Of a stretch of 64,000 nucleotides of DNA, positions 6,330 through 27,003 are shown piece by piece. Within the stretch, counting starts at the first letter, position 1, and the number at the start of each line of letters is the position of its first letter. The stretch is from the NCBI GenBank assembly GCA_943358385.1, contig CALRGX010000001.1:2380-66379 (forward strand), written 5' to 3'. A program made the translations under genes and the position numbers. The notes under the pieces were generated by a model. That model ran no database searches and had not been told where the DNA came from. It saw only the letters and a program-made list of their open reading frames with translations. Source of the stretch: Parcubacteria group bacterium (GTDB taxonomy: Bacteria > Patescibacteriota > Minisyncoccia > Phycocordibacterales > UBA2100).

Positions 6330-7853
6330 TCAGTCTCGCTGTCGATATTGCAGCGCTTCGAGCATGTGCTCAGGTTCGATAATGTCTGCGTCAACCAGAT
6401 CTGCAATGGTGCGGGCAAGTTTAATGGTGCGATGATAGCCGCGCGAAGATAAGTGCAACTTACGTGTGGCATCCACCAATACCTGTTCGGCCCTAGATGA
6501 CAGGTGCGCAAAAGTTTCAATGTCTCGCGCTTTCATAGAAGCATTGGTGGTGGTGTGTTTTACGGATGCAAAACGATTCTGTTGCACTATGCGTGCATTT
6601 TGCACACGCGTGCGTGCGGAGGCTGTTTCATGCGAGGTGTGCTTTTTTGTGTGCACTGACAGTGCTTCAGGTGCGATTTCACCGACGTGGACCCACATAT
6701 CAATACGATCAGCAATGGGTCCAGAAATTTTCTTGCGGTACTTTTCAATCGCCACCGGGAGACAGGTGCAGCGGTTGGAACCTGCAAACCCGCACGGGCA
6801 CGGGTTAAGTGCGGCGACCAACATAAAGCGTGCAGGAAAAACATGCGAAGCGCGAGCGCGCGACACTGAAACCACCTTGTCTTCGAGTGGCTCACGCAAT
6901 GCGTTGATGACATCACGATGGAACTCAGGAAATTCATCGAGAAACAGAACACCGCGATGAGCGAGCGTTACTTCCCCTGGGCGTGGGATGGCGCCGCCGC
7001 CAATGATGGAAGCGTAAGAAGAAGTGTGGTGCGGTGATCGAAACGGTGCCTCGCGGTGGATAGTGCCGTGAAGTGTTCCCGCCACCGAGTGAATAGTGGT
7101 CACTTCCAGCATGTCGTCGTGAGTGAGGGGCGGCAATATCGACGCAAGAGCTCGAGCGAGCATGGTCTTCCCTGTTCCAGGGGGACCATAGAAAGCGATG
7201 TTGTGCTCACCTGCTGCAGCAATTTCGAGCGCGCGTTTCGCTCCTTCTTGTCCGCGTATTTCATCCAATAGTGCAAACTGCTCGGTCGGTCTCTCAAGTT
7301 TTCGGCGGGTTCTTTCTGGGAGAGTGTGTTCTGTGGCTTTGGTGAGATGAAGGATTACCTCAAGTAGTGTTGTGGCTGGTCGCACTATCAAGCCGTCTAC
7401 GAGCGCAGCTTCATCCGCATTTCCCTCGGGAACAATCATTTCTCTAAACCCTGCTTTTTTCGCAGCTTGAGCAAGAGACAGTGCGCCGGCAATAGTGCGT
7501 AGACTCCCGTCGAGCGCGAGCTCTCCGGCGAATAGAATTCCCTCTGGCTTAAATGCTATTTCCTCAGCGGCAAGAAGGTACGTTAACGCCATGGGTAAGT
7601 CGAATGACGCACCTTCTTTTTTTAGAGCGGCCGGGGCAAGCGAAATAACAATTTTCAAGTTGCTGTGTTTTGGTGACTTGAAGCCACTGTTTTTGATAGC
7701 GGAAGCCACACGATCGCGCGATTCCTCGACTGCCTTGTCAGGCAGACCGACTACATTAAATTGATGTAGTCCTTTTCCGACGTCAGCTTCGACGTGCACG
7801 ATGTGTGCAACGGGGAGAGCGGGCTGGGCGCCGAAGACTCGCGCAAAACTCAT
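6330..7853 (-). CDS. comM: YifB/ComM-family Mg-chelatase-like AAA+ ATPase
   Basis: N-terminal Lon-like/ChlI domain, Walker A GPPGTGKT and the NPCPCG zinc-finger-like motif typical of ComM/YifB. Confidence 0.85.
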   Translation of the reverse strand: MSFARVFGAQPALPVAHIVHVEADVGKGLHQFNVVGLPDKAVEESRDRVASAIKNSGFKSPKHSNLKIVISLAPAALKKEGASFDLPMALTYLLAAEEIAFKPEGILFAGELALDGSLRTIAGALSLAQAAKKAGFREMIVPEGNADEAALVDGLIVRPATTLLEVILHLTKATEHTLPERTRRKLERPTEQFALLDEIRGQEGAKRALEIAAAGEHNIAFYGPPGTGKTMLARALASILPPLTHDDMLEVTTIHSVAGTLHGTIHREAPFRSPHHTSSYASIIGGGAIPRPGEVTLAHRGVLFLDEFPEFHRDVINALREPLEDKVVSVSRARASHVFPARFMLVAALNPCPCGFAGSNRCTCLPVAIEKYRKKISGPIADRIDMWVHVGEIAPEALSVHTKKHTSHETASARTRVQNARIVQQNRFASVKHTTTNASMKARDIETFAHLSSRAEQVLVDATRKLHLSSRGYHRTIKLARTIADLVDADIIEPEHMLEALQYRQRD

Positions 7854-8351: not shown

Positions 8352-9662
8352 TCAGAGGCGACGCTCCGCACGCAAACGGGCGAGGATCTCCACGAATGAA
8401 TTGGGGCTTTCTGCAAAAATGAGGATGTCGCGAGTGGGAAATGCATACAAAAAGCGGACAGTGCCTCGTGCGTCGCGTAGGATGCGCACGTCGTAGTTTT
8501 GTACAATAACATCTTCAAACGCACGAGGAACACTCTTTCCTTCCGGGTTGGTTATCTGTGCGGGGATAGCGGTAAAAATGGGGGCGAGCTCGTCATTGAT
8601 GCTCTTTTCCCACTCAATCATCCCGGCAAATGCTCGCTCGTACACCAGTACGGGAACCACGAGTATGGGCACGTTTTCATCAAGTGCGTGCACGCCAAAG
8701 AAGAACTCATCCGAGAGAGCACGCACAAGGCTTTCAGGTGGTACTGCGCCGATGGAACGCATAAACTCCTCTGTGGTTGCCGGCCGCTGCACTGACTCAC
8801 CCAGTTCATTAGGTGTTGATATTAAAGGTGCAATGCGTGCGATGGCACCCAGAGTGAGGGCGACCTGTGTCCGTGCAAGAGCAAGCTGCTGGCGCGCTTC
8901 GCTGGCCAAACGCCCCTGTAACAAAGGAAATGCAAGCGTTTGCTCAGAGAACATAATAGAAGGGAGCGGTGGCGGTGTGTTGGTCTGCCGCTGCCCTGCG
9001 ACGAAAAACATGGCAGTCAGGGCAAGTACCCCTAAAAACACAAACGTGAGCGCAAAGATGACAACGCGGGCGATGGGTTTGCGGTCGCTCTTATGTGCAG
9101 GAGCCGGAGCGACATTATCGCGCTTCTGGCGCTTTTCCTCTTCCAGGGCCGTTGCTTTGATGAGCGACATTTTGTTGTCGTCTACCAAGCCTTGCAAGTC
9201 GTCCTTCAGGGTATGCAGTGCACGCATGTCGAACGGCTTTTCATCTACAGCGTTTAGAAGAGAGACCTCTTCTGCAGAAGGCATAACGTTCACCATCCCT
9301 GCTTTTTCTTTTTCACCCAAGGGCGTCGCACGTAGCTTTCGTTCGTGTGGTTCAGCGTCAAGTTTGGCTTTCACTTCTTCATGCTTCGCTGCGTTGTCTT
9401 TAGCATCGCGCGGGGCAAATACATTTTCGAATTGTGGCTGTACGGCTGGTTTATCAGGAGCATTTGGGCGAGCGGGGAGCTTAATTTCCTCGAGGATGCG
9501 CGCAACATCCTCGTTGAGGTTGCCGCTGTTTTCTGCCAGCTCATCAACGGCTGGTAGGGTGGGAATAGTGGGGAATGTCTGTGAGAACTTAGGTACTGGC
9601 GCTGCACTAGACTCGGTCGCCTGGGCTGCTGTTTTCTCGCTTTGGTTGTTCTCCTCGGGCAT
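8352..9662 (-). CDS. hypothetical single-pass membrane protein
   Basis: Pro/Glu-rich N-terminal region, one TM helix (IARVVIFALTFVFLGVLALTAMFFVAG) and a ~200-aa C-terminal domain. The upstream start overlaps the pnp 3' end by 56 nt, so an internal Met (around 9296) may be the real start. Confidence 0.5.
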   Translation of the reverse strand: MPEENNQSEKTAAQATESSAAPVPKFSQTFPTIPTLPAVDELAENSGNLNEDVARILEEIKLPARPNAPDKPAVQPQFENVFAPRDAKDNAAKHEEVKAKLDAEPHERKLRATPLGEKEKAGMVNVMPSAEEVSLLNAVDEKPFDMRALHTLKDDLQGLVDDNKMSLIKATALEEEKRQKRDNVAPAPAHKSDRKPIARVVIFALTFVFLGVLALTAMFFVAGQRQTNTPPPLPSIMFSEQTLAFPLLQGRLASEARQQLALARTQVALTLGAIARIAPLISTPNELGESVQRPATTEEFMRSIGAVPPESLVRALSDEFFFGVHALDENVPILVVPVLVYERAFAGMIEWEKSINDELAPIFTAIPAQITNPEGKSVPRAFEDVIVQNYDVRILRDARGTVRFLYAFPTRDILIFAESPNSFVEILARLRAERRL

Positions 9663-11811
9663 GGTTCATTGGTGCTGATGGTTTGAGTCCTTTGCGTTCT
9701 GCAAAACCTGGATCAGCAGCTTTGATTGAGAGATTGTACCTTCCTTTCTCATCAATCTCCTTTAGTATAACAGGCACCTTCTCTCCGAGTGACACAGCAT
9801 CAGACACTTTCTCGAATCTGAAGGGTGACATTTCCGAAATATGCACCAACCCTTCGGTGTTTGGTCCTATCTTTACGAACGCACCAAAGTCCATCAGGCG
9901 TGTTACCTCGCCTTCGAATCGTTCCCCTACCTCGTACTCGCGAGTCAGGTCGAATATTTCTTGGTGTGCGGCTTCTGCGGTGCCATTTTTGCCAGTGATG
10001 TAGATAGTGCCATCATCATCGATAGAGATTTCCTCCACTTTGGTGCGGTCTTTGATGCCGTTAATCATTTTGCCACCAGGGCCGATGACGAGACCGATCT
10101 GATCTACCGCCACTTTCATGGTGATAATTTTAGGTGCGCGTGGGTTGATGTCAGCGCGTGGGAGAGCGATAGCACCCTTAATAACTTCGAGGATCTCGAG
10201 CCGTGCTTTCTTTGCTTGAGCAAATGCTTCGGTAAGTACTGCAAGAGGAACTCCTTCTACTTTTACGTCCATCTGGACGCCGGTGACACCATCGCGCGTG
10301 CCCGCCACCTTAAAGTCCATATCACCATGGTGGTCTTCGGGCCCTTGGATGTCAGTGAACACTTTGTACACGCCTTTCTTCGCATCCGACATCATACCCA
10401 TTGCAATGCCTGCGACTGGCTTTTTAATCGGCACGCCTGCGTCCATCAATGCCAATGTGCCTGCGCACACGGTACCCATCGAGGTAGAACCGTTACTTGC
10501 CAGACACTCAGACACGATACGGATGGTGTACGGGAATTCGCCCTTTGGTGGGATAACAGCACGAAGTGCTTTCTCAGCTAGTGCGCCGTGGCCAATCATG
10601 CGGCGGTTGGTACCCCCAACGCGCCCTGTTTCACCTACAGAAAATGGGGGGAAGTTGTAGTGCAGCATGAATCGTTTCTTACCATTTTGCTGCTCAATAG
10701 TGTCGATTATTTGGGCCTGATCAGGGCCACCCAAGGTCACAATGCCTAATACGTGTGTTGCACCTCGGTAGAACAATCCCGTGCCATGAAGTATGGGAGA
10801 GATTCCTCCGGCTTGTGCAAAGAGCGGGCGGATTTCATCAAATCGACGACCATCCACGCGCTTCCCTTTCTCGATCGCCAACGTGTGCACGTATTCGTCC
10901 ATGTGGTGCTCAAAGTATCCATCCAGTTTCTTGGAGTCGATATCGGGCACTTGCTCCGCAGCGTGTGCCATCCATTCGCCTTTCAAAATCCCAAAATCTT
11001 CTTTCCGTAAGAGATGATTTTTGTCCTCAATACGCTTCATGATTTGTGAAGCGAAGATGGGGGCGAGGCGTGCATCGTCGGTCATTGCCGGGACGAATGA
11101 GAATTTTTCTGTACCGCCTTCTGCCACTATTTTTGCCTGCCAGACTTGGATTTTCTCGATCTCTTCTGATGCACGGGCGAGTGCCTTCGCCAGTATGTCT
11201 TCACTTACTTCACTTGCACCCACTTCGATCATGTTTATTAAACCATCCTTACCGCACGCGGTAAGGTCGAGCAGTGCTTTCGGAGTACCGTCCTCGTCAC
11301 GTTCCTTGTACGTAGGATTCACGATGAACTGGTCGTTTCCTTCCACTAAGCCAACTCGAATCGAGGAAACAGGGCCATTAAAAGGAATCTGTGATGTGGA
11401 GAGTGCCAACGACGCTGCGGTGACCGCCAAGATGTCGGCGTCGTACTCTTCCAGGGAGAGAACGGTAATAATGACCTGTACATCGCGCTTCAGCCCCTTT
11501 GGAAAGAGTGGGCGAATCGTTCTGTCGACAATGCGGCCTGAAAGCACAGCTTCATCCGATGGCTTACCTTCGCGACGCATAAAACGAGAGCCAAGAATGG
11601 CACCGGTGGCGTAGAAACGCTCTTCGTATTCGACAGAGAGGGGGAAATAGTCGAGCTGGGACTCCTTTGATCCCATGACGGCTGTTGCTAAAACAGCCGA
11701 GTTGCCATAGCGCACCAAAACTGATCCGTGTGCTTGGTCAGCCCAGTTGTTAAATTCTGCCGAGAGTGTCTTCCCTGCTACTTCCAATTCGTACACTTTT
11801 TTCTCCAACAT
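9607..11811 (-). CDS. pnp: polynucleotide phosphorylase
   Basis: Two RNase PH domains, KH and S1 domains; N-terminus MLEKKVYELEVAGKTLSAEF. Confidence 0.9.
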   Translation of the reverse strand: MLEKKVYELEVAGKTLSAEFNNWADQAHGSVLVRYGNSAVLATAVMGSKESQLDYFPLSVEYEERFYATGAILGSRFMRREGKPSDEAVLSGRIVDRTIRPLFPKGLKRDVQVIITVLSLEEYDADILAVTAASLALSTSQIPFNGPVSSIRVGLVEGNDQFIVNPTYKERDEDGTPKALLDLTACGKDGLINMIEVGASEVSEDILAKALARASEEIEKIQVWQAKIVAEGGTEKFSFVPAMTDDARLAPIFASQIMKRIEDKNHLLRKEDFGILKGEWMAHAAEQVPDIDSKKLDGYFEHHMDEYVHTLAIEKGKRVDGRRFDEIRPLFAQAGGISPILHGTGLFYRGATHVLGIVTLGGPDQAQIIDTIEQQNGKKRFMLHYNFPPFSVGETGRVGGTNRRMIGHGALAEKALRAVIPPKGEFPYTIRIVSECLASNGSTSMGTVCAGTLALMDAGVPIKKPVAGIAMGMMSDAKKGVYKVFTDIQGPEDHHGDMDFKVAGTRDGVTGVQMDVKVEGVPLAVLTEAFAQAKKARLEILEVIKGAIALPRADINPRAPKIITMKVAVDQIGLVIGPGGKMINGIKDRTKVEEISIDDDGTIYITGKNGTAEAAHQEIFDLTREYEVGERFEGEVTRLMDFGAFVKIGPNTEGLVHISEMSPFRFEKVSDAVSLGEKVPVILKEIDEKGRYNLSIKAADPGFAERKGLKPSAPMNHARGEQPKRENSSPGDRV

Positions 11812-13984: not shown

Positions 13985-14168
13985 CCCGCCCCATGGGGCC
14001 GAAGGACCGTAAAATCCTTACTCTCTATGATTTTAGGTGTAAGTGCCACCTATCTCAACCATGCTGCAAGCTCGTTCTGTTCAGTATATAAAATCTGCGG
14101 CAGACATTAGCCGCTTTGCTTTCGACTCAGGAAAAATATTGTGCGACGCCCCATGCTATGCTTTTTGT

Positions 14169-15083
14169 ATGGCGAGTAAATCCCCTATTGAAGAATATAA
14201 GCAGCAGTTTTTGGAATATGTGGAAATTGAGCGGGGCAGATCGGTAAAAACCGTTGAAAACTATGACCATTACCTCACTCGATTCTTTGAACAGGCAAAA
14301 GTAAGGCGCCCCGAAGACATTTCACATAGTACCGTACGAAAATTTCGTATTTGGTTGAATCGCCAAGACGGTACTACGGGAAGCCTAAAAAAACGCACTC
14401 AAAACTACTACCTAATCGCACTGCGCGCTTTTTTAAAGTATCTGCGCAAACACAACATTAAGACGCTCCAGCCCGAGACGATTGAGTTGGCAAAACTTCC
14501 TGACAGAGAGATCGACATGATAAGCGAATCTGACCTCATGCGCCTATTAAAAGCTCCTGAAGGTAGTTCCCTTTCCGTATTGCGCGACCGAGCCATCCTT
14601 GAAACGCTCTTTTCTACAGGTTTGCGTGTCTCTGAGCTCACTTCTCTTAATCAAGACATTGATTTGTCGCGCGACGAAATAACAGTACGAGGAAAGGGTG
14701 AAAAACTGCGCGTGGTATTTTTCTCTCCCACGGCAAAGGCTGCTATAGCGCACTACCTTAAGCAAAGGGATGATTTCGACGAGGCGCTCTTTGTGCAATA
14801 CGGGAAAAACCTGAAGCAAGCAAAAGAGCGGCGCCTCACTCCGCGCTCGGTAGAGCGAATGGTGAAGAAGTACGCCATAAAAGCAGGTATAACCAAGAAG
14901 GTGACACCCCATATCGTGCGGCACAGTTTTGCAACAGATTTGTTGCAAAACGGTGCGGATATACGTAGTGTCCAGGTACTCTTGGGGCACGCCAGTATCA
15001 ACACCACCCAGATTTACACGCACGTCACTGACAAGCACCTCCGTGAGATTCATAGCAAATTCCACGGCAAACGCCGCTCGTAG
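14169..15083 (+). CDS. tyrosine site-specific recombinase (XerC/XerD family)
   Basis: N-terminal SAM-like domain and C-terminal catalytic residues in RHSFATDLL...LGHASINTTQIYTHV. Start set at MASKSP. Confidence 0.8.
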   Translation: MASKSPIEEYKQQFLEYVEIERGRSVKTVENYDHYLTRFFEQAKVRRPEDISHSTVRKFRIWLNRQDGTTGSLKKRTQNYYLIALRAFLKYLRKHNIKTLQPETIELAKLPDREIDMISESDLMRLLKAPEGSSLSVLRDRAILETLFSTGLRVSELTSLNQDIDLSRDEITVRGKGEKLRVVFFSPTAKAAIAHYLKQRDDFDEALFVQYGKNLKQAKERRLTPRSVERMVKKYAIKAGITKKVTPHIVRHSFATDLLQNGADIRSVQVLLGHASINTTQIYTHVTDKHLREIHSKFHGKRRS

Positions 15084-19119: not shown

Positions 19120-19191
19120 GCTCCCGTGGTGAAACGGATATCACGACTGACTTCGGATCAGTTGTTCCAGGTTCGAGTCCTGGCGGGAGCA
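19120..19191 (+). tRNA. tRNA-Arg (anticodon TCG)
   Basis: Manual cloverleaf fold: acceptor GCTCCCG/CGGGAGC, D-stem GTGA/TCAC, anticodon stem ACTGA/TCAGT with loop CTTCGGA, T-arm CCAGG-TTCGAGT-CCTGG, discriminator A. No encoded CCA. Confidence 0.8.
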
Positions 19192-19247
19192 CAAAACGAA
19201 GAAGCTGGATGCATAAGCATTCAGCAATTTTCGTTTTGTAGCCACGA

Positions 19248-19388
19248 CCAGGACTCGAAAGGCGGAGCTCGAATGAATACCGAGTGATATGCGGTAGAAA
19301 ACGAGCGAGCCAGGGCAGGAGCCACTTTCTCGAGCGCGGAGCTTCCGAGAGATTAGTGAGTTGCGCCGAGTCCTGGCGGGAGCACAAG
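19248..19388 (+). repeat. tRNA-associated conserved noncoding module, copy A (downstream of tRNA-Arg)
   Basis: In order: antisense T-arm segment ccaggactcgaa, then a conserved core (aggcggagctcgaatgaataccgag ... ggtagaaaacgagcgagc ... ccactttctcgagcgcggagcttccgagagattagtgagttgcgccga), then a direct repeat of the tRNA-Arg 3' end (gagtcctggcgggagcacaa). The core is near-identical to the copy at 26495-26673. Confidence 0.65.
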
Positions 19389-19612
19389 ACGAGAAAAGTG
19401 TGGCTATTTTGTATAAGGCCAAATACGACGCCCCACTGAAGGGAGATCGTCCCAGAATCGCTGGCTTTTGTCTCGGCCTGAGGCCTAACAAAAGACCTTG
19501 CGTTCTTGGACGGCGCCTCGGATGTTTTGCTCATGGTGCTCGCAAAACATATCCTGCGACGCTTCGATTCTCCACGGAAAGTGCGTAGGCACTTTCCTCT
19601 GCGCCGACTGCT

Positions 19613-19650
19613 ACAAAACTAAAGCTGCCTTGTAGGCAGCTTTAGTTTTG
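19613..19650 (-). terminator. terminator hairpin downstream of tRNA-Gly(GCC)
   Basis: aaaactaaagctgcc-ttgt-aggcagctttagtttt, a perfect 15-bp stem. Confidence 0.6.
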
Positions 19651-19654
19651 GCAG

Positions 19655-19725
19655 TGCGGGCAGGGAGAATCGAACTCCCGACTCATCCTTGGCAAGGACG
19701 TGTTATACCACTTAACCATGCCCGC
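19655..19725 (-). tRNA. tRNA-Gly (anticodon GCC)
   Basis: Reverse-strand fold: acceptor GCGGGCA/TGCCCGC, D-arm GTTA-AGTGGTA-TAAC, anticodon stem CGTCC/GGATG with loop TTGCCAA, T-arm GGGAG-TTCGATT-CTCCC. Confidence 0.8.
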
Positions 19726-22150: not shown

Positions 22151-23945
22151 ATGCGTATGTCTACACACGACAGCAATCCTAAGAAACTTGTTTGGCACGA
22201 CTTGCTCCAGGCAGCTCGCGTGTTGTTTTTGTTTATTGCTGAGAGTCGAGCTCAGGCTTGGGCGCTTCTTTTGCTAGGCATGCTCTCTGCGGTCCTTGGC
22301 GCAGTAGTGCCCTATGCAGTAGGTAGTTTTGTGGACGGGCTTATATCACTTTCCACAGCTACTCCAGTATCTTGGCATTTTCCACTCGCGCTTTGGTTCA
22401 GCGTCACATCGTTTTCAGCACTGGTTGATTGGATTTTGGGCCTTCGTGCGACCAAATTAGGAAACCACATCTATTCGACTTCTGCTCATCGTTGGTATGG
22501 CTACCTACTCGGGCTACCGATTAGTTTTCATAAAGAGCAAAAGGGAGGGGAGACCTTAAACAAGATAAGCCGCTCTAGCGGCTACGCATCGCAGTTGGTC
22601 GACAACATCCTCTTGAATACCGGGCCGCAGATTCTCAGTATGTTTATTGGCATCGGTTTTGCGCTGTATCTGCAGCCTGTTTTAGCGGCGATTATTACTT
22701 TCGGGATGATGGTGTATGCAACCGTTTCAATACGAGCCGCACTGCCTTTGGCGCAACTACAGTTGGCGAATAACAAAGCATGGCATGAGGCTTACGGTGA
22801 CACGTATGATCTGTTGGGGAGTATCCATGCGGTCAAACAGTCGACCGCTGAAAAATTTGCGGACAAAAAGATATACGACGGCTTTGTGCTCAAGGCGGGT
22901 GTTGCCTCGAATGCTTCTGAAATGATATGGGTAAAGATTCGTTTTTTCCAACGACTTTCCGTCGTTTTTACACAACTCGCTGTATTTATTGGGTCGGTCT
23001 GGTTTGTGATGCAGGGGGAACTTTCGGTAGGCGCCTTGGTTGCCCTGAATGGATATAGCGCCATGGTGTTTGGACCATTGGCCAGCCTTGCCATGAATTG
23101 GAACACTATTCAGAACGGTTTAACGAGTATCTACGAAGTACAGGGAATCATGAGTCGCGCGCAAGAGGCGTACGACCGACCTGGAGCAGTTACGGTACAG
23201 AATGGCGCCGTTTCCTTTGAGCGTGTCTCCTTTGCCTACCCAGATGCACCTGATCGACAGATTCTCAAAGATGTATCTTTTACCATCACGGATGGGGAAA
23301 CAGTGGCGTTTGTAGGAGAGTCTGGGGTGGGGAAGAGCACCGTCATTGAACTTATTGGTGGTTACTACTACCCAACCAGTGGGAAAGTGCTGGTGGGCGA
23401 TGTGCCTACGGATGCAGTTTCTTTGAGCAACTTGCGCGATCTGATAGCGGTAGTCCCTCAGGAGCCGGTCTTGTTGAACGACACGGTGCTGAGTAATATC
23501 CGCTTTGGCAGGCAATCGGCGAGCGATGAGGAGGTGATCGACGCTGCAAAACAAGCGTATGCTCACGATTTTATCGACTCATTTCCTGAAAAGTATCAGC
23601 AGCTGGTTGGAGAGCGAGGCGTCAAATTGTCTGTAGGACAAAAGCAGCGCATTGCGATAGCGCGTGCGGTGCTGCGGAATCCTCGAATTTTGATTCTCGA
23701 TGAGCCCACTTCGGCGCTGGATGCTAAAACCGAGTCTCAAATAACCACATCCCTCGAGCACCTTATGAAAGGGAGAACGACTATCATTATCGCGCACCGA
23801 CTCTCCACTGTGCGAAAAGCTTCAAACATAATCGTTTTTGATGGCGGTGCAGTGGTTGAACAGGGGGGCGCACCAACAGCTCATGGCGAAAGAAGACGGA
23901 GTCTATAAAAAGCTGTATGAGTATCAGATAGGGCATCATAGCTAA
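22151..23945 (+). CDS. ABC transporter, fused permease/ATPase (MsbA-like exporter); C-terminus frameshifted at a G6 run
   Basis: Six-TM N-terminal domain, Walker A GESGVGKST, signature LSVGQKQR, Walker B ILILDE and H-loop IIAHRL. The tracked ORF stops at 23908. Removing one G from gggggg at 23863-23868 restores the canonical tail ...VEQGAHQQLMAKEDGVYKKLYEYQ ending at 23945. Confidence 0.8.
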
Positions 23946-23967
23946 GGCGTTGTGCTATTCTCTCTGC

Positions 23968-24888
23968 ATGTCACTGCGATACCGATTCAAATCTAAAGAA
24001 GATGCCACGTTCAGGGAAGTGGAGGATTTTTGTGCTGGCGTTTGGATCGAGGTGGTCGCACCTACCGAAGAGGATGTGCAACTCTTGGTTGCGAAGCATG
24101 GTTTGGAAGAAGGGCACTTGCGCGATGCTCAAGACTTTTTCGAGGCTCCGCGACTCGAACTTGAGGAAGGTACCTCATATTTCTTCACACGTTTTCCTGC
24201 CCAAATCGAAGGAGAGACTACCACTGCGCCGATTTTGATTGCTATCGGAGACGACTTCGTACTGACGGTCATGCACGAACGTTCTGAGTGGGTTGATAAA
24301 ATGACACAACGCGTTGATGTGTATACCACGCAAAAAGCTAAATTCTTCCTGCACATCATTGCTGCTATTGAAAGGGAATACACCCGTGTATTTACAGGAG
24401 TGAGAAGGGAAGTGCGTCGGGCAAGACTTACTGTGCGCGATGTATCCGAATCCGCTATCGAACAATCAGTCCAAATGGAGTATGCGCTGAACGAGTTCGT
24501 GAGTGCTTTGGTGCCTACAAACAGTGCGCTCCAGGCCATGACCTCGGGGAAGCATCTACAATTTTTCGAGGAAGATCTTGAGATGGTGGAAGATGTACAA
24601 CTGGCAAATGCGCAGTTGATTGAAAGTGCAAAAAACAGCTTAAAAACAATTCAGAACATTCGCACGGCGCATGCTGCTTTGGTCTCTAATCGACTTAATA
24701 AAGTCGTCCGCACGCTCACTGCGCTCACCATCCTACTTACCATCCCAACGATTATTGGCGCTTTCTACGGCATGAATATACCGCTCCCTCTTCAGACAAG
24801 CGTGTATGCGTTTCCTTTGGTGGTAGTCGCGACTCTCTGTGTGATGGGTGCCGTCGCACATCTGTTTGTGAGAAACCGGTGGCTCTAG
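23968..24888 (+). CDS. corA: CorA-family Mg2+/Co2+ transporter
   Basis: C-terminal two TM helices with FYGMNIPLP, the GMN signature. Confidence 0.8.
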   Translation: MSLRYRFKSKEDATFREVEDFCAGVWIEVVAPTEEDVQLLVAKHGLEEGHLRDAQDFFEAPRLELEEGTSYFFTRFPAQIEGETTTAPILIAIGDDFVLTVMHERSEWVDKMTQRVDVYTTQKAKFFLHIIAAIEREYTRVFTGVRREVRRARLTVRDVSESAIEQSVQMEYALNEFVSALVPTNSALQAMTSGKHLQFFEEDLEMVEDVQLANAQLIESAKNSLKTIQNIRTAHAALVSNRLNKVVRTLTALTILLTIPTIIGAFYGMNIPLPLQTSVYAFPLVVVATLCVMGAVAHLFVRNRWL

Positions 24889-26284: not shown

Positions 26285-26369
26285 AAAGAGATAAAACCAA
26301 AAAGAGGCCCGCCTGGGGCCCCTTTGGTTTTTGGCAAAGTGTAGTGTATTCTCTCTACACGTGCCATTT

Positions 26370-26440
26370 GCGGGGTTAGTTTAGTGGTAAAACGAGAGTT
26401 TTCCAAACTTTTGTCGGGAGTTCGATTCTCCCACCCCGCA
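26370..26440 (+). tRNA. tRNA-Gly (anticodon TCC)
   Basis: Acceptor GCGGGGT/ACCCCGC, D-arm GTTT-AGTGGTA-AAAC, anticodon stem AGAGT/ACTTT (one G-U pair) with loop TTTCCAA, T-arm GGGAG-TTCGATT-CTCCC, discriminator A. Confidence 0.75.
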
Positions 26441-26494
26441 CTGAAACAGGAAGCCCTACATGTATATGTAGGGCGACCTTGTTTCCGTAGCGAC

Positions 26495-26673
26495 GGGTGG
26501 AGAATCGAAAAGCGGAGCTCGAATGAATACCGAGCACAGCGAGGTAGAAAACGAGCGAGCTCGGCGTAGGTTTTCTTATATGCACGCTTTTAGAAAACCA
26601 AGTGCAAAGCTCAGGAACCACTTTCTCGAGTGCGAAGCTTGCGAGAGATTAGTGAGTTGCGCCGATTCTCCCA
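26495..26673 (+). repeat. tRNA-associated conserved noncoding module, copy B (downstream of tRNA-Gly-TCC)
   Basis: Antisense T-arm segment gggtggagaatcgaa, the same conserved core as copy A with a 45-nt hairpin insertion, then a direct repeat of the tRNA 3' portion (cgattctccca). It is followed by a strong terminator. Confidence 0.65.
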
Positions 26674-26675
26674 AT

Positions 26676-26710
26676 AAAACAAGGCGACAGCTCTGCTGTC
26701 GCCTTGTTTT
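26676..26710. terminator. bidirectional terminator
   Basis: aaaacaaggcgacagc-tct-gctgtcgccttgtttt, a perfect 13-bp stem flanked by A and T runs. Confidence 0.7.
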
Positions 26711-26727
26711 ATTGAGAAGACCTCTGC

Positions 26728-26832
26728 TTACGCAGCCGGTGTTTCTGCAGGAGCTTCTTTGTGGCAAGGGCACTCGCATGGGTCCATTTTGCAAGTTTCT
26801 GCTCCTTGGCAAGTGCACATTTTTTCGTCCAT
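26728..26832 (-). CDS. possible Cys-rich metallothionein-like peptide (34 aa)
   Basis: Minus-strand ORF MDEKMCTCQGAETCKMDPCECPCHKEAPAETPAA with 6 Cys and 1 His in 34 aa, below the ORF-track cutoff. No clear SD sequence. Confidence 0.3.
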   Translation of the reverse strand: MDEKMCTCQGAETCKMDPCECPCHKEAPAETPAA

Positions 26833-26966
26833 AATAGTCAGAAGATTTATTCAGCAACCTCCGAGAAGATTGCGCTGCTGATAATCATTCCGCCCGTTTG
26901 TACAAGCGTTCTGAAATTATACACATGAGTCTGAAGTTCATGAAAGGGGACCGCCCTTCTGTGTGG

Positions 26967-27003
26967 AAATCAAAACGACTGCCGGGGGCAGTCGTTTTGA
27001 TTT
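26967..27003 (-). terminator. terminator downstream of hup
   Basis: aaatcaaaacgactgcc-ggg-ggcagtcgttttgattt. Confidence 0.65.

Follow-up and report, generated by a model that had tools for sequence, protein, structure and literature searches.

The DNA analysed here (the window) is a 64-kb stretch of a contig from Parcubacteria (candidate phyla radiation, CPR), and all coordinates are window positions. Four tRNA genes were identified in it by ARAGORN, two of which are followed on the same strand by related sequence. The element under study, copy B (26442-26673), lies behind tRNA-Gly(UCC) and aligns with copy A (19193-19392), which lies behind tRNA-Arg(UCG). Modules of this kind measure 150-230 nt, and no conserved open reading frame (ORF) was found within them. 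The locus of copy B is composed as follows, the two copies of the direct repeat being named DR1 and DR2 and the predicted helices P1 to P3.

26370-26441, plus strand: tRNA-Gly(UCC) (ARAGORN; Rfam tRNA, 70.1 bits)
26423-26441, plus strand: DR1, the 3' part of tRNA-Gly from T-loop nucleotide C56, CGATTCTCCCACCCCGCAC (coordinates)
26443-26485, plus strand: terminator-like, element-borne spacer made up of an A-tract, a 9-bp GC hairpin (26453-26474) and a U-rich tract (-24.6 kcal/mol, z -6.1; terminator scan)
26487-26509, plus strand: GUAGC motif, then the arm; the arm, GGAGAATCGAA at 26499-26509, is the 5' strand of P1 (sequence; inverted-repeat screen, 11/12)
26510-26560, plus strand: junction AAAA and helix P2, conserved block GCGGAGCTCGAATGAATACCGAG...GGTAGAAAACGAGCGAGC (repeat, alignment, fold)
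26561-26611, plus strand: lineage-specific 51-nt replacement between P2 and P3, with an 8-bp hairpin at 26569-26599 (missing from copy A and from the copy in the relative L004)
26612-26662, plus strand: helix P3, conserved block CAGGAACCACTTTCTCGAG...GAGAGATTAGTGAGTTGCGC, ending exactly at the repeat boundary (repeat, alignment, fold)
26663-26673, plus strand: DR2, CGATTCTCCCA, a truncated, displaced tRNA 3' fragment that is the 3' strand of P1 (sequence match)
26672-26714, both strands: predicted ancestral bidirectional intrinsic terminator with a 20-bp stem, common to the convergent ORF 26731-26832 on the minus strand (fold; match in the relative L006)

An initial annotation of this DNA had described A and B as two copies of one module, and this was borne out. 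A repeat finder matched them over a 57-nt block (91% identity) and a 59-nt block (85%). Two 23-nt cores, the blocks GCGGAGCTCGAATGAATACCGAG (19262 and 26512) and GAGAGATTAGTGAGTTGCGCCGA (19347 and 26643), each occur exactly twice in the 64 kb and were absent from shuffled sequences, and the pairwise alignment contains a single gap block, in A. Since A and B each recur in identical form in six independent assemblies of the window species, their arrangement is not an assembly artefact. The 11-nt remnant of the tRNA 3' repeat was likewise found, DR2 of copy B (26663-26673) being equal to tRNA positions 26423-26433; the acceptor part of the repeat has been lost from B. The corresponding repeat is 19 nt with one mismatch in L004 and 26 nt at 96% identity in copy A, and a length of 19 nt was found for DR1/DR2 in L004, L007 and L045. 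The arm of B, GGAGAATCGAA, is the reverse complement of the T-loop and 3' T-stem strand of tRNA-Gly, TTCGATTCTCC, and in the minimum free energy (MFE) fold helix P1 is formed by GGAGAAUCG and CGAUUCUCC.

Syntenic loci of relatives were obtained through homologues of the CCA-adding enzyme, and the percentages attached to these relatives are protein identities to the window. In L006 (84%) tRNA-Gly(UCC) is joined directly to a matching terminator, and neither tRNA-Arg nor tRNA-Gly(GCC) carries a module. L004 (84%) has a module with the same core type as copies A and B (type 1) behind tRNA-Gly(UCC), without the 51-nt segment, and a truncated type 1 module behind tRNA-Arg; a further deletion in this genome took out parts of modules A and C, the latter a third module of the window described below. 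In L007 (70%) tRNA-Gly(UCC) is followed by a module that is shorter and differs in its core, and the convergent tRNA-Arg and tRNA-Gly(GCC) genes of this relative lie 8 nt apart. In L045 (70%) two tandem modules follow tRNA-Gly(GCC), and one type 2 and two decayed modules follow tRNA-Arg, while L050 (72%) has another core type behind tRNA-Arg. Two more distant species (66-68%) have no modules. Empty tRNA-Arg and tRNA-Gly(GCC) sites were found in L006, L007 and two further species (L054-L063 and L064-L073).

The right-hand repeat starts exactly at C56 in every complete case, at least six independent modules being represented, and the left-hand copy completes the tRNA from C56 to position 73, keeping it intact. 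The tRNA-Arg and tRNA-Gly(GCC) genes of the window are convergent, and their displaced 3' ends are found between modules A and C, separated by 42 nt. Such an arrangement mirrors the module-free layout of L007, as would be expected if the modules had entered the tRNA genes and left the old ends behind. At the level of sequence, the comparison showed the module to be an insertion between T-loop positions 55 and 56. Both this fixed point of insertion and the wider, apparently mobile family had been overlooked by the initial annotation.

The contigs L042, L043, L044 and L051-L053 belong to relatives of 72-79% identity, and each stops 70-111 nt upstream of the gene for the CCA-adding enzyme, on the side of tRNA-Arg and its module. 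These six ends may be assembly breaks at a repeated or palindromic locus.

All members of the family are laid out alike: a tRNA-specific segment, an element hairpin, a tRNA-specific arm, an element core and a tRNA-specific repeat. The arm lies about 55 nt after the tRNA and pairs with the displaced repeat to form P1, which closes a three-way junction. At least five core types were found on this one plan, at tRNA-Arg, tRNA-Gly(UCC) and tRNA-Gly(GCC), with two to three modules in tandem in L045. One and the same core type was found at different tRNAs, arm and repeat in each case matching the local tRNA; the arm of copy A, for instance, is the reverse complement of the T-arm segment TTCGAGTCCTGG of tRNA-Arg. 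The two other modules of the window are located as follows.

19174-19392, plus strand: copy A behind tRNA-Arg(UCG), with DR1 at 19174-19199 and DR2 at 19367-19392 (repeat finder, repeat D5; fold)
19191-19239, 19248-19259 and on to 19366, plus strand: spacer hairpin, arm CCAGGACTCGAA and core of copy A, respectively (fold; inverted-repeat screen)
19440-19653, minus strand: module C, with a type 2 core, behind tRNA-Gly(GCC) (19654-19725, minus strand); homologous to the tRNA-Arg module of L045
19614-19650, 19576-19597 and 19563-19573, minus strand: terminator hairpin, extra hairpin before the arm, and arm of module C, respectively (sequence, fold)
To 19450 and 19440-19449, minus strand: core of module C and its decayed DR2, CGATCTCCCT (sequence)

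Module C adjoins copy A tail-to-tail. In L045 the arrays lie at 7425-7800 (plus strand) and 9400-9817 (minus strand), each with an intact unit next to the tRNA and decayed distal units. Between them are about 1.7 kb of small ORFs without assigned function, one of which matches phrog_8970, a phage protein family.

When the eight complete modules were folded separately, the tRNA-sense strand gave the same topology in every one: helix P1; the strand GAAA (or GAA); helix P2; 1-2 nt; and helix P3, which is a long hairpin directly adjoining the 3' strand of P1. In P2, a 3-5-bp outer stem leads through the internal loop 5'-G(G/C)A / 3'-GA to a variable hairpin. The tRNA-sense strand folded more stably than the antisense strand in 8/8 modules, and the z-scores of four of them were -7.1, -10.1, -4.2 and -4.2. 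Based on the type 2 pair (tRNA-Gly(GCC) of the window and tRNA-Arg of L045), all 39 pairs outside P1 are kept, with six double changes, two wobble changes and none broken, while pairing in slid-partner controls was 36-50%, with 0-1 double changes. The type 1 trio retains its P2 and P3 pairs except for one lost by deletion, and two double changes and several G-U pairs occur outside P1; a single P1 pair is disrupted, in one of the copies. The window and L004 share 89% identity over the module and 100% over the tRNA, against 36-74% for adjacent non-coding DNA. The initial annotation had suggested that the module is expressed as RNA rather than being a silent scar; this conservation, together with the compensatory changes in a sense-strand fold, supports the second half of that statement, and expression as RNA is plausible.

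A simple descriptor of the plan (a 9-nt arm ending in TCG, then AA(A/G), with an exact complement 60-300 nt downstream) was run over 883 kb and gave 16 hits. Fourteen were modules adjoining tRNA genes, and the rest fell at two chance loci, one of them in two overlapping contigs. The completeness of the arm varies among copies: it covers 18/19 positions in L050 and is nearly full-length in the first tRNA-Gly module of L045 (Gly-1), and P1 of L007 reaches about 14-16 bp, while the pairing is only 9-10 bp in A and the acceptor part is deleted in B. DR2 of L050 lies beyond the contig end, and that of Gly-1 is decayed. Whether the arm covaries with DR2 rather than DR1 was examined by duplex energies, which gave no clear preference.

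The asymmetric P2 loop and the junction GAAA are kept in seven of the eight modules despite unrelated hairpin sequences, and most copies have an extra A in the motif U-tract-GU-A-GC at the start of the arm. The internal loop, GAAA and the extra-A motif may be sites of protein binding or tertiary contact.

The extra 45-nt stem-loop that had been described in B is present, and was corrected to a 51-nt replacement: 26561-26611 stands where the L004 copy at the same tRNA has 5 nt, a net gain of 46 nt. The segment was found in all six assemblies of the window species. It contains a perfect 8-bp stem (GGTTTTCT at 26569-26576 and AGAAAACC at 26592-26599, with a 15-nt loop) that is unique in the window; folded alone, this hairpin is no better than its shuffles (-9.6 kcal/mol, z -0.48). 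Comparative folding placed the segment at the junction between P2 and P3, not inside a helix, so that the predicted three-way junction becomes a four-way junction with P1, P2 and P3 retained. In a single fold prediction it also supplies a new 5' strand for the base of P3. The gain would fit a tolerated insertion into a junction under structural constraint.

Copy B is followed by a strong hairpin of 20 perfect bp (26672-26691 and 26695-26714, loop UCU) with a GC-rich core and then UUUUAUU (-32.9 kcal/mol, z -10.5). A perfect 13-bp terminator had been proposed at 26676-26710; the strong, perfect hairpin stands, with its stem lengthened to 20 bp and its limits moved to 26672-26714. On the minus strand the hairpin is equally good (-36.8 kcal/mol). 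It combines a GC-rich hairpin and a U-tract, as in intrinsic terminators, and has a matching hairpin in both L004 and L006. A simple terminator scan overlooked it on the plus strand, probably because the U-tract lies inside the extended stem. The further view that it is the module's own end was not sustained: by comparison with the relatives it is to be read as the ancestral terminator of tRNA-Gly and not as part of the module, and it is bidirectional, also ending the convergent 34-codon ORF. Because the empty site of L006 consists of the tRNA and then the same terminator directly, the module lies in the ancestral tRNA-Gly transcription unit. The proposed single unit of tRNA, spacer hairpin, module and terminator holds in this respect; it is not a clean one, the spacer itself being terminator-like.

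Five modules at three tRNA species have homologous spacer hairpins of one length, and the homology extends to all core types; for this reason the hairpin is assigned to the element. Its origin as a fold-back copy of a native terminator was rejected, the spacers being homologous across tRNAs and unlike the native terminators. In B the tetranucleotide GACC separates the spacer hairpin from its U-tract, which suggests a leaky termination signal. That a discrete or a read-through RNA of the module exists has, in our estimate, a probability of about one half.

Known families offered no identity for the module. At the gathering score, Rfam 15 returned only tRNA in the window, and permissive searches gave no relevant match on A or B (E<=10) or on the L045 and L007 modules (E<=1), self-cleaving ribozymes, Y RNA-like RNAs and HEARO included. 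The hammerhead ribozyme was rejected on its junction strands, which here are GAAA, 1-2 nt and 0 nt, and on the absence of CUGANGA; other ribozyme cores were rejected by eye. Comparison of the core with phage and plasmid collections by blastn gave no match, and pattern scans of viral contigs gave nothing or chance matches only. Small ORFs between modules (L045, L050, L054) were inspected as possible recombinases and yielded only a helix-turn-helix protein and a phage protein without assigned function. TIGR-Tas arrays, which are 36-nt units beside a Tas gene (PMC12045711), were also rejected. Full-text literature searches did not find such modules described.

It is about an even question, in our judgement, whether copy B is an old member of a family of mobile, protein-less tRNA-gene insertion modules of about 150-230 nt that are read as RNA. 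The hosts of the family form one clade of ultra-small, Paceibacteria/Kaiserbacteria-like CPR bacteria. The modules are best described as a miniature, structured and uncatalogued variant of tRNA-gene insertion elements. They would be, or would once have been, mobile, moved in trans by a site-specific enzyme acting at T55|C56, with new copies entering beside the tRNA and shifting older ones downstream. An excised or circular form is predicted to have the core end joined to C56, ...GTTGCGC|CGATTCTCC.... The conserved junction would act as a tRNA-sense single strand, most likely RNA, made by read-through from the tRNA promoter past a leaky spacer hairpin and ending at the ancestral terminator; normal 3' processing would then free it from the tRNA. 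Our best guess is that the module RNA serves the element, in tRNA recognition or retargeting or in its own maintenance, rather than the host.

Several points weigh against this mobile, RNA-producing family. The reading does not explain how the arm comes to be matched to a new tRNA. No mobilising enzyme was found in the window or the syntenic loci, and no autonomous relative in the collections searched. The type 1 motif used for the scans, GAATGAATACCGAGN{5,14}GGTAG, was found in 185,579 species genomes only as two ORF-less copies in the genome of L004, and in the metagenome scan again only in the L004 genome, the remaining matches being due to chance; either the distribution of the type 1 core is very narrow or the scans used an overly strict pattern. 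The sample is one of eight complete modules in four genomes, with the truncated L004 copy and a contig-cut copy in L050 bringing the genomes to five; these modules are partly related, not eight independent cases, and all come from metagenome assemblies. Directly after the tRNA, the spacer has the A-tract, GC hairpin and U-tract flagged as terminator-like by the scan in both A and B, and could halt most transcription before the module. In the MFE fold of the full read-through RNA the arm pairs with the 3' half of the tRNA itself and the cloverleaf unfolds, so that read-through would require the RNA to fold kinetically, the tRNA to be processed fast or the downstream repeat to capture the arm. 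The high conservation could stem from recent lateral spread rather than selection, and the module also folds under DNA parameters (z -4.3). The CCA-adding enzyme places the window, L004 and L006 at equal distances from one another (83-84% identity), for which reason the direction of change cannot be polarised, and the empty sites could have arisen by precise deletion between the repeats instead of marking an absence of insertion.

For the matching of the arm, three candidate routes may be named. The arm could be a guide that is re-copied from the target; it could be corrected against the adjacent tRNA end by template switching nucleated at the spacer hairpin; or modules could recombine at the common motifs TCGAA and CGA. 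Template-switch correction of imperfect palindromes is an established mutational process. A bolder form of the idea, which we consider rather doubtful, is that of a protein-less mobile element choosing its target by nucleic-acid pairing: the arm, complementary to T54 to position 73, would either identify the tRNA's 3' end or be re-templated from it, the scaffold could be redirected to other tRNA genes with entry always at T55|C56, and transcription from the tRNA promoter would carry the element along as RNA. Programmability would then have its signature in the way tRNA-specific and element-specific segments are interleaved.

The principal alternative, unlikely in our view and yet to be taken seriously, is that the fold works as a single-stranded DNA recombination site which mimics the duplex tRNA-gene target for a tyrosine recombinase, any RNA being incidental. 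The arm, the tRNA 3' end and the spacer together make a hairpin of about 100 nt with about 35 paired positions and a conserved bulged A (GTAGC), similar in size and imperfect palindromy to attC; the structures share with attC and with attP(+) of CTX phage a length of about 60-140 nt with bulged bases, conservation of structure over sequence, a folded stem that copies the target duplex, and arrays that grow at the target end, here tandem arrays with the newest unit beside the target. The strand asymmetry fits one strand of DNA equally well, the fold forms under DNA parameters as noted above, the spacer hairpin may block transcription, and the only recombinase nearby is Xer-like. Yet that Xer-like gene is present equally in module-free genomes, and no integrase of the integron type came to light. 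Many pairs in the stems are G-U (G-T in DNA), which are weak in DNA, and within a type the loop sequences of P2 and P3 are conserved, something that a hairpin used for recombination only would not need. Identity with an integron attC itself was rejected: there is no IntI, and neither R''/R' boxes (RYYYAAC...GTTRRRY) nor an R-box GTTRRRY is visible at the junctions, which read ...GCGC|CGA, ...GTGAC|CGA and ...GGGA|CGA. The modules differ from attC and attP(+) further in lacking L boxes, in their tRNA target and in their large branched core.

The readings as scar, as host trailer and as omega-RNA are less likely. That the modules are inert scars, remnants of the attL or attR side of larger, internally deleted phages, plasmids or islands, is quite improbable, even though a tRNA 3' direct repeat with a complete copy and a partial one is the classic footprint of integrative elements at tRNA genes (PMC9897764), DR2 is decayed in B and C, and the L004 deletion cut modules A and C. 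Independent deletions would not leave the same approximately 55 nt plus 115 nt in different genomes and behind different tRNAs, each tRNA has an arm matched to it, and the compensatory stem changes and the 89% identity beside flanks of 36-74% speak against inertness; searches of the phage, plasmid and viral collections brought up no larger relative. Insertion inside a tRNA gene, a replacement 3' end, tandem occupation and clean empty sites are all shared with integrase-mediated elements, among them those with crossover in the T-loop. However, the modules are 150-230 nt long as against 9 kb to more than 100 kb, a difference of two orders of magnitude, have no integrase or any other gene, hold an inverted copy of the tRNA 3' end, a three-way junction and interleaved segments, and use one core type at several tRNAs. 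Of the defining traits of elements of the integrase type, the tRNA direct repeats and the empty sites are present, and an integrase of its own is absent from the module.

We consider it improbable, if slightly less so than the scar, that the module is a non-mobile trailer or small RNA serving the host, one that engages or titrates tRNA-processing enzymes or protects the 3' end. The structure and conservation of the sense strand would suit it, and the least-decayed arms complement most of the tRNA 3' end, L007 with its intact DR2 being the copy that would resemble an acceptor/T-stem minihelix; the tRNA genes here have no encoded CCA, and the genes for the CCA-adding enzyme and RNase Y are close by. 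On the other hand, the modules are patchy among close relatives and leave clean empty sites, tandem arrays and decaying copies are hallmarks of selfish insertion, and the acceptor-like pairing is poor in A and B, that part being gone from B. Dicistronic tRNA-ncRNA genes (plant tRNA-snoRNA, MALAT1 mascRNA, gammaherpesvirus tRNA-miRNA) also place a non-coding RNA (ncRNA) directly 3' of a tRNA in one unit, and the module, like these RNAs, could be separated by the normal tRNA 3' processing enzyme. Unlike the modules, they are fixed host or viral genes, eukaryotic or viral, without tRNA repeats and without an anti-T-arm segment.

To the reading as a guide RNA of OMEGA or CRISPR type, with the core as scaffold and the following 16-20 nt (C56 to position 73) as guide for a recombinase or nuclease whose gene lies elsewhere, we give the smallest chance. 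The omega-RNAs of TnpB sit at the right end of IS200/IS605 and IS607 elements with this geometry. The geometry would fit that of TnpB/IscB omega-RNAs: a structured part of 100-150 nt ends exactly at the right boundary (C56) and is followed by target-identical sequence, the insertion lies immediately 3' of a fixed short motif, (G/A)GTT, in the empty site, and the element is non-autonomous. But neither in the window nor in the syntenic loci was a TnpB, IscB or Cas gene found, scans of genomes and metagenomes gave as further type 1 scaffolds only the ORF-less copies mentioned above, and the internal arm ties up in P1 the first 9-10 nt of what would be the guide. IS200/IS605 elements make no long direct repeat, and neither sequence similarity nor an Rfam hit was found. 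By the features that mark the family, the module is not classed as a TnpB/IscB omega-RNA.

Models based on casposons or on MITEs (miniature inverted-repeat transposable elements) were rejected as well. By inspection, the element ends just inside the repeats are unrelated (AGAAGCTGG... and ...GAGTTGCGC), so that terminal inverted repeats are absent. There are three copies in the 64 kb, all behind tRNAs, the descriptor finding none elsewhere. The modules resemble MITEs and other small repeats (Correia/NEMIS, RPE, bcr1, REP/BIME) in being small, non-coding and strongly folded, often within transcription units and with the enzyme in trans. They differ from MITEs in that the repeat is 19-26 nt of one tRNA gene as against a duplication of 2-10 bp, in that every module found is at a tRNA T-loop, and in their very low copy number.

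Entering a tRNA gene and restoring its 3' end is the hallmark of large elements that bear an integrase, and is seen here with gene-less inserts of 150-230 nt. If mobile, these would be the smallest site-specific integrative elements known to us, and would pose the question of how a non-coding element is retargeted between tRNA genes. If the fold is that of an RNA, it would represent an uncatalogued class of structured RNA in CPR bacteria, tied physically and perhaps functionally to tRNA 3' ends. In practical terms, such inserts leave the tRNA loci of CPR metagenome bins with long palindromes and partial copies of tRNAs, and possibly with breaks in the assembly.

The genes around the modules are housekeeping genes, among them those for the CCA-adding enzyme, RNase Y, HU, CorA, an ABC transporter, ClpP, trigger factor and NusA. 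The best homologues of the CCA-adding enzyme belong to metagenome bins of Paceibacterota and Kaiserbacteria. In the 64-kb window no gene for a transposase, reverse transcriptase, HUH enzyme or RNA-guided nuclease was identified. Its sole recombinase gene, that for the Xer-like tyrosine recombinase (14043-15083), lies 4-5 kb from a module and is syntenic in all relatives, module-bearing and module-free alike.

Convergent on module B is the 34-codon, Cys-rich ORF at 26731-26832 on the minus strand (MDEKMCTCQGAETCKMDPCECPCHKEAPAETPAA), which has a Cys-rich counterpart in L006 and lies in a region alignable in L004; it may encode a metallothionein-like peptide. Just upstream of this small ORF is a non-coding block (26836-26900) with 80-84% identity among the window, L004 and L006, compared with 36-58% for nearby intergenic DNA, and with no Rfam match. 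It could be a leader or a regulatory element. Upstream of tRNA-Gly(UCC), at 26340-26365, the motif TAGTGTATTCTCTC(T)ACACGTGC is conserved in the window, L004 and L006, and part of it, TATTCTCTCT, recurs at 23943-23971 upstream of the CorA gene (repeat D16). This motif may be a promoter element outside the sigma-70 consensus used in the scan. Perfect 17-bp hairpins with A- and T-tracts on both sides were found at 19614-19650, after tRNA-Gly(GCC), and at 26967-27003, after the HU gene, and bidirectional terminators seem to be the rule in the genome of the window.

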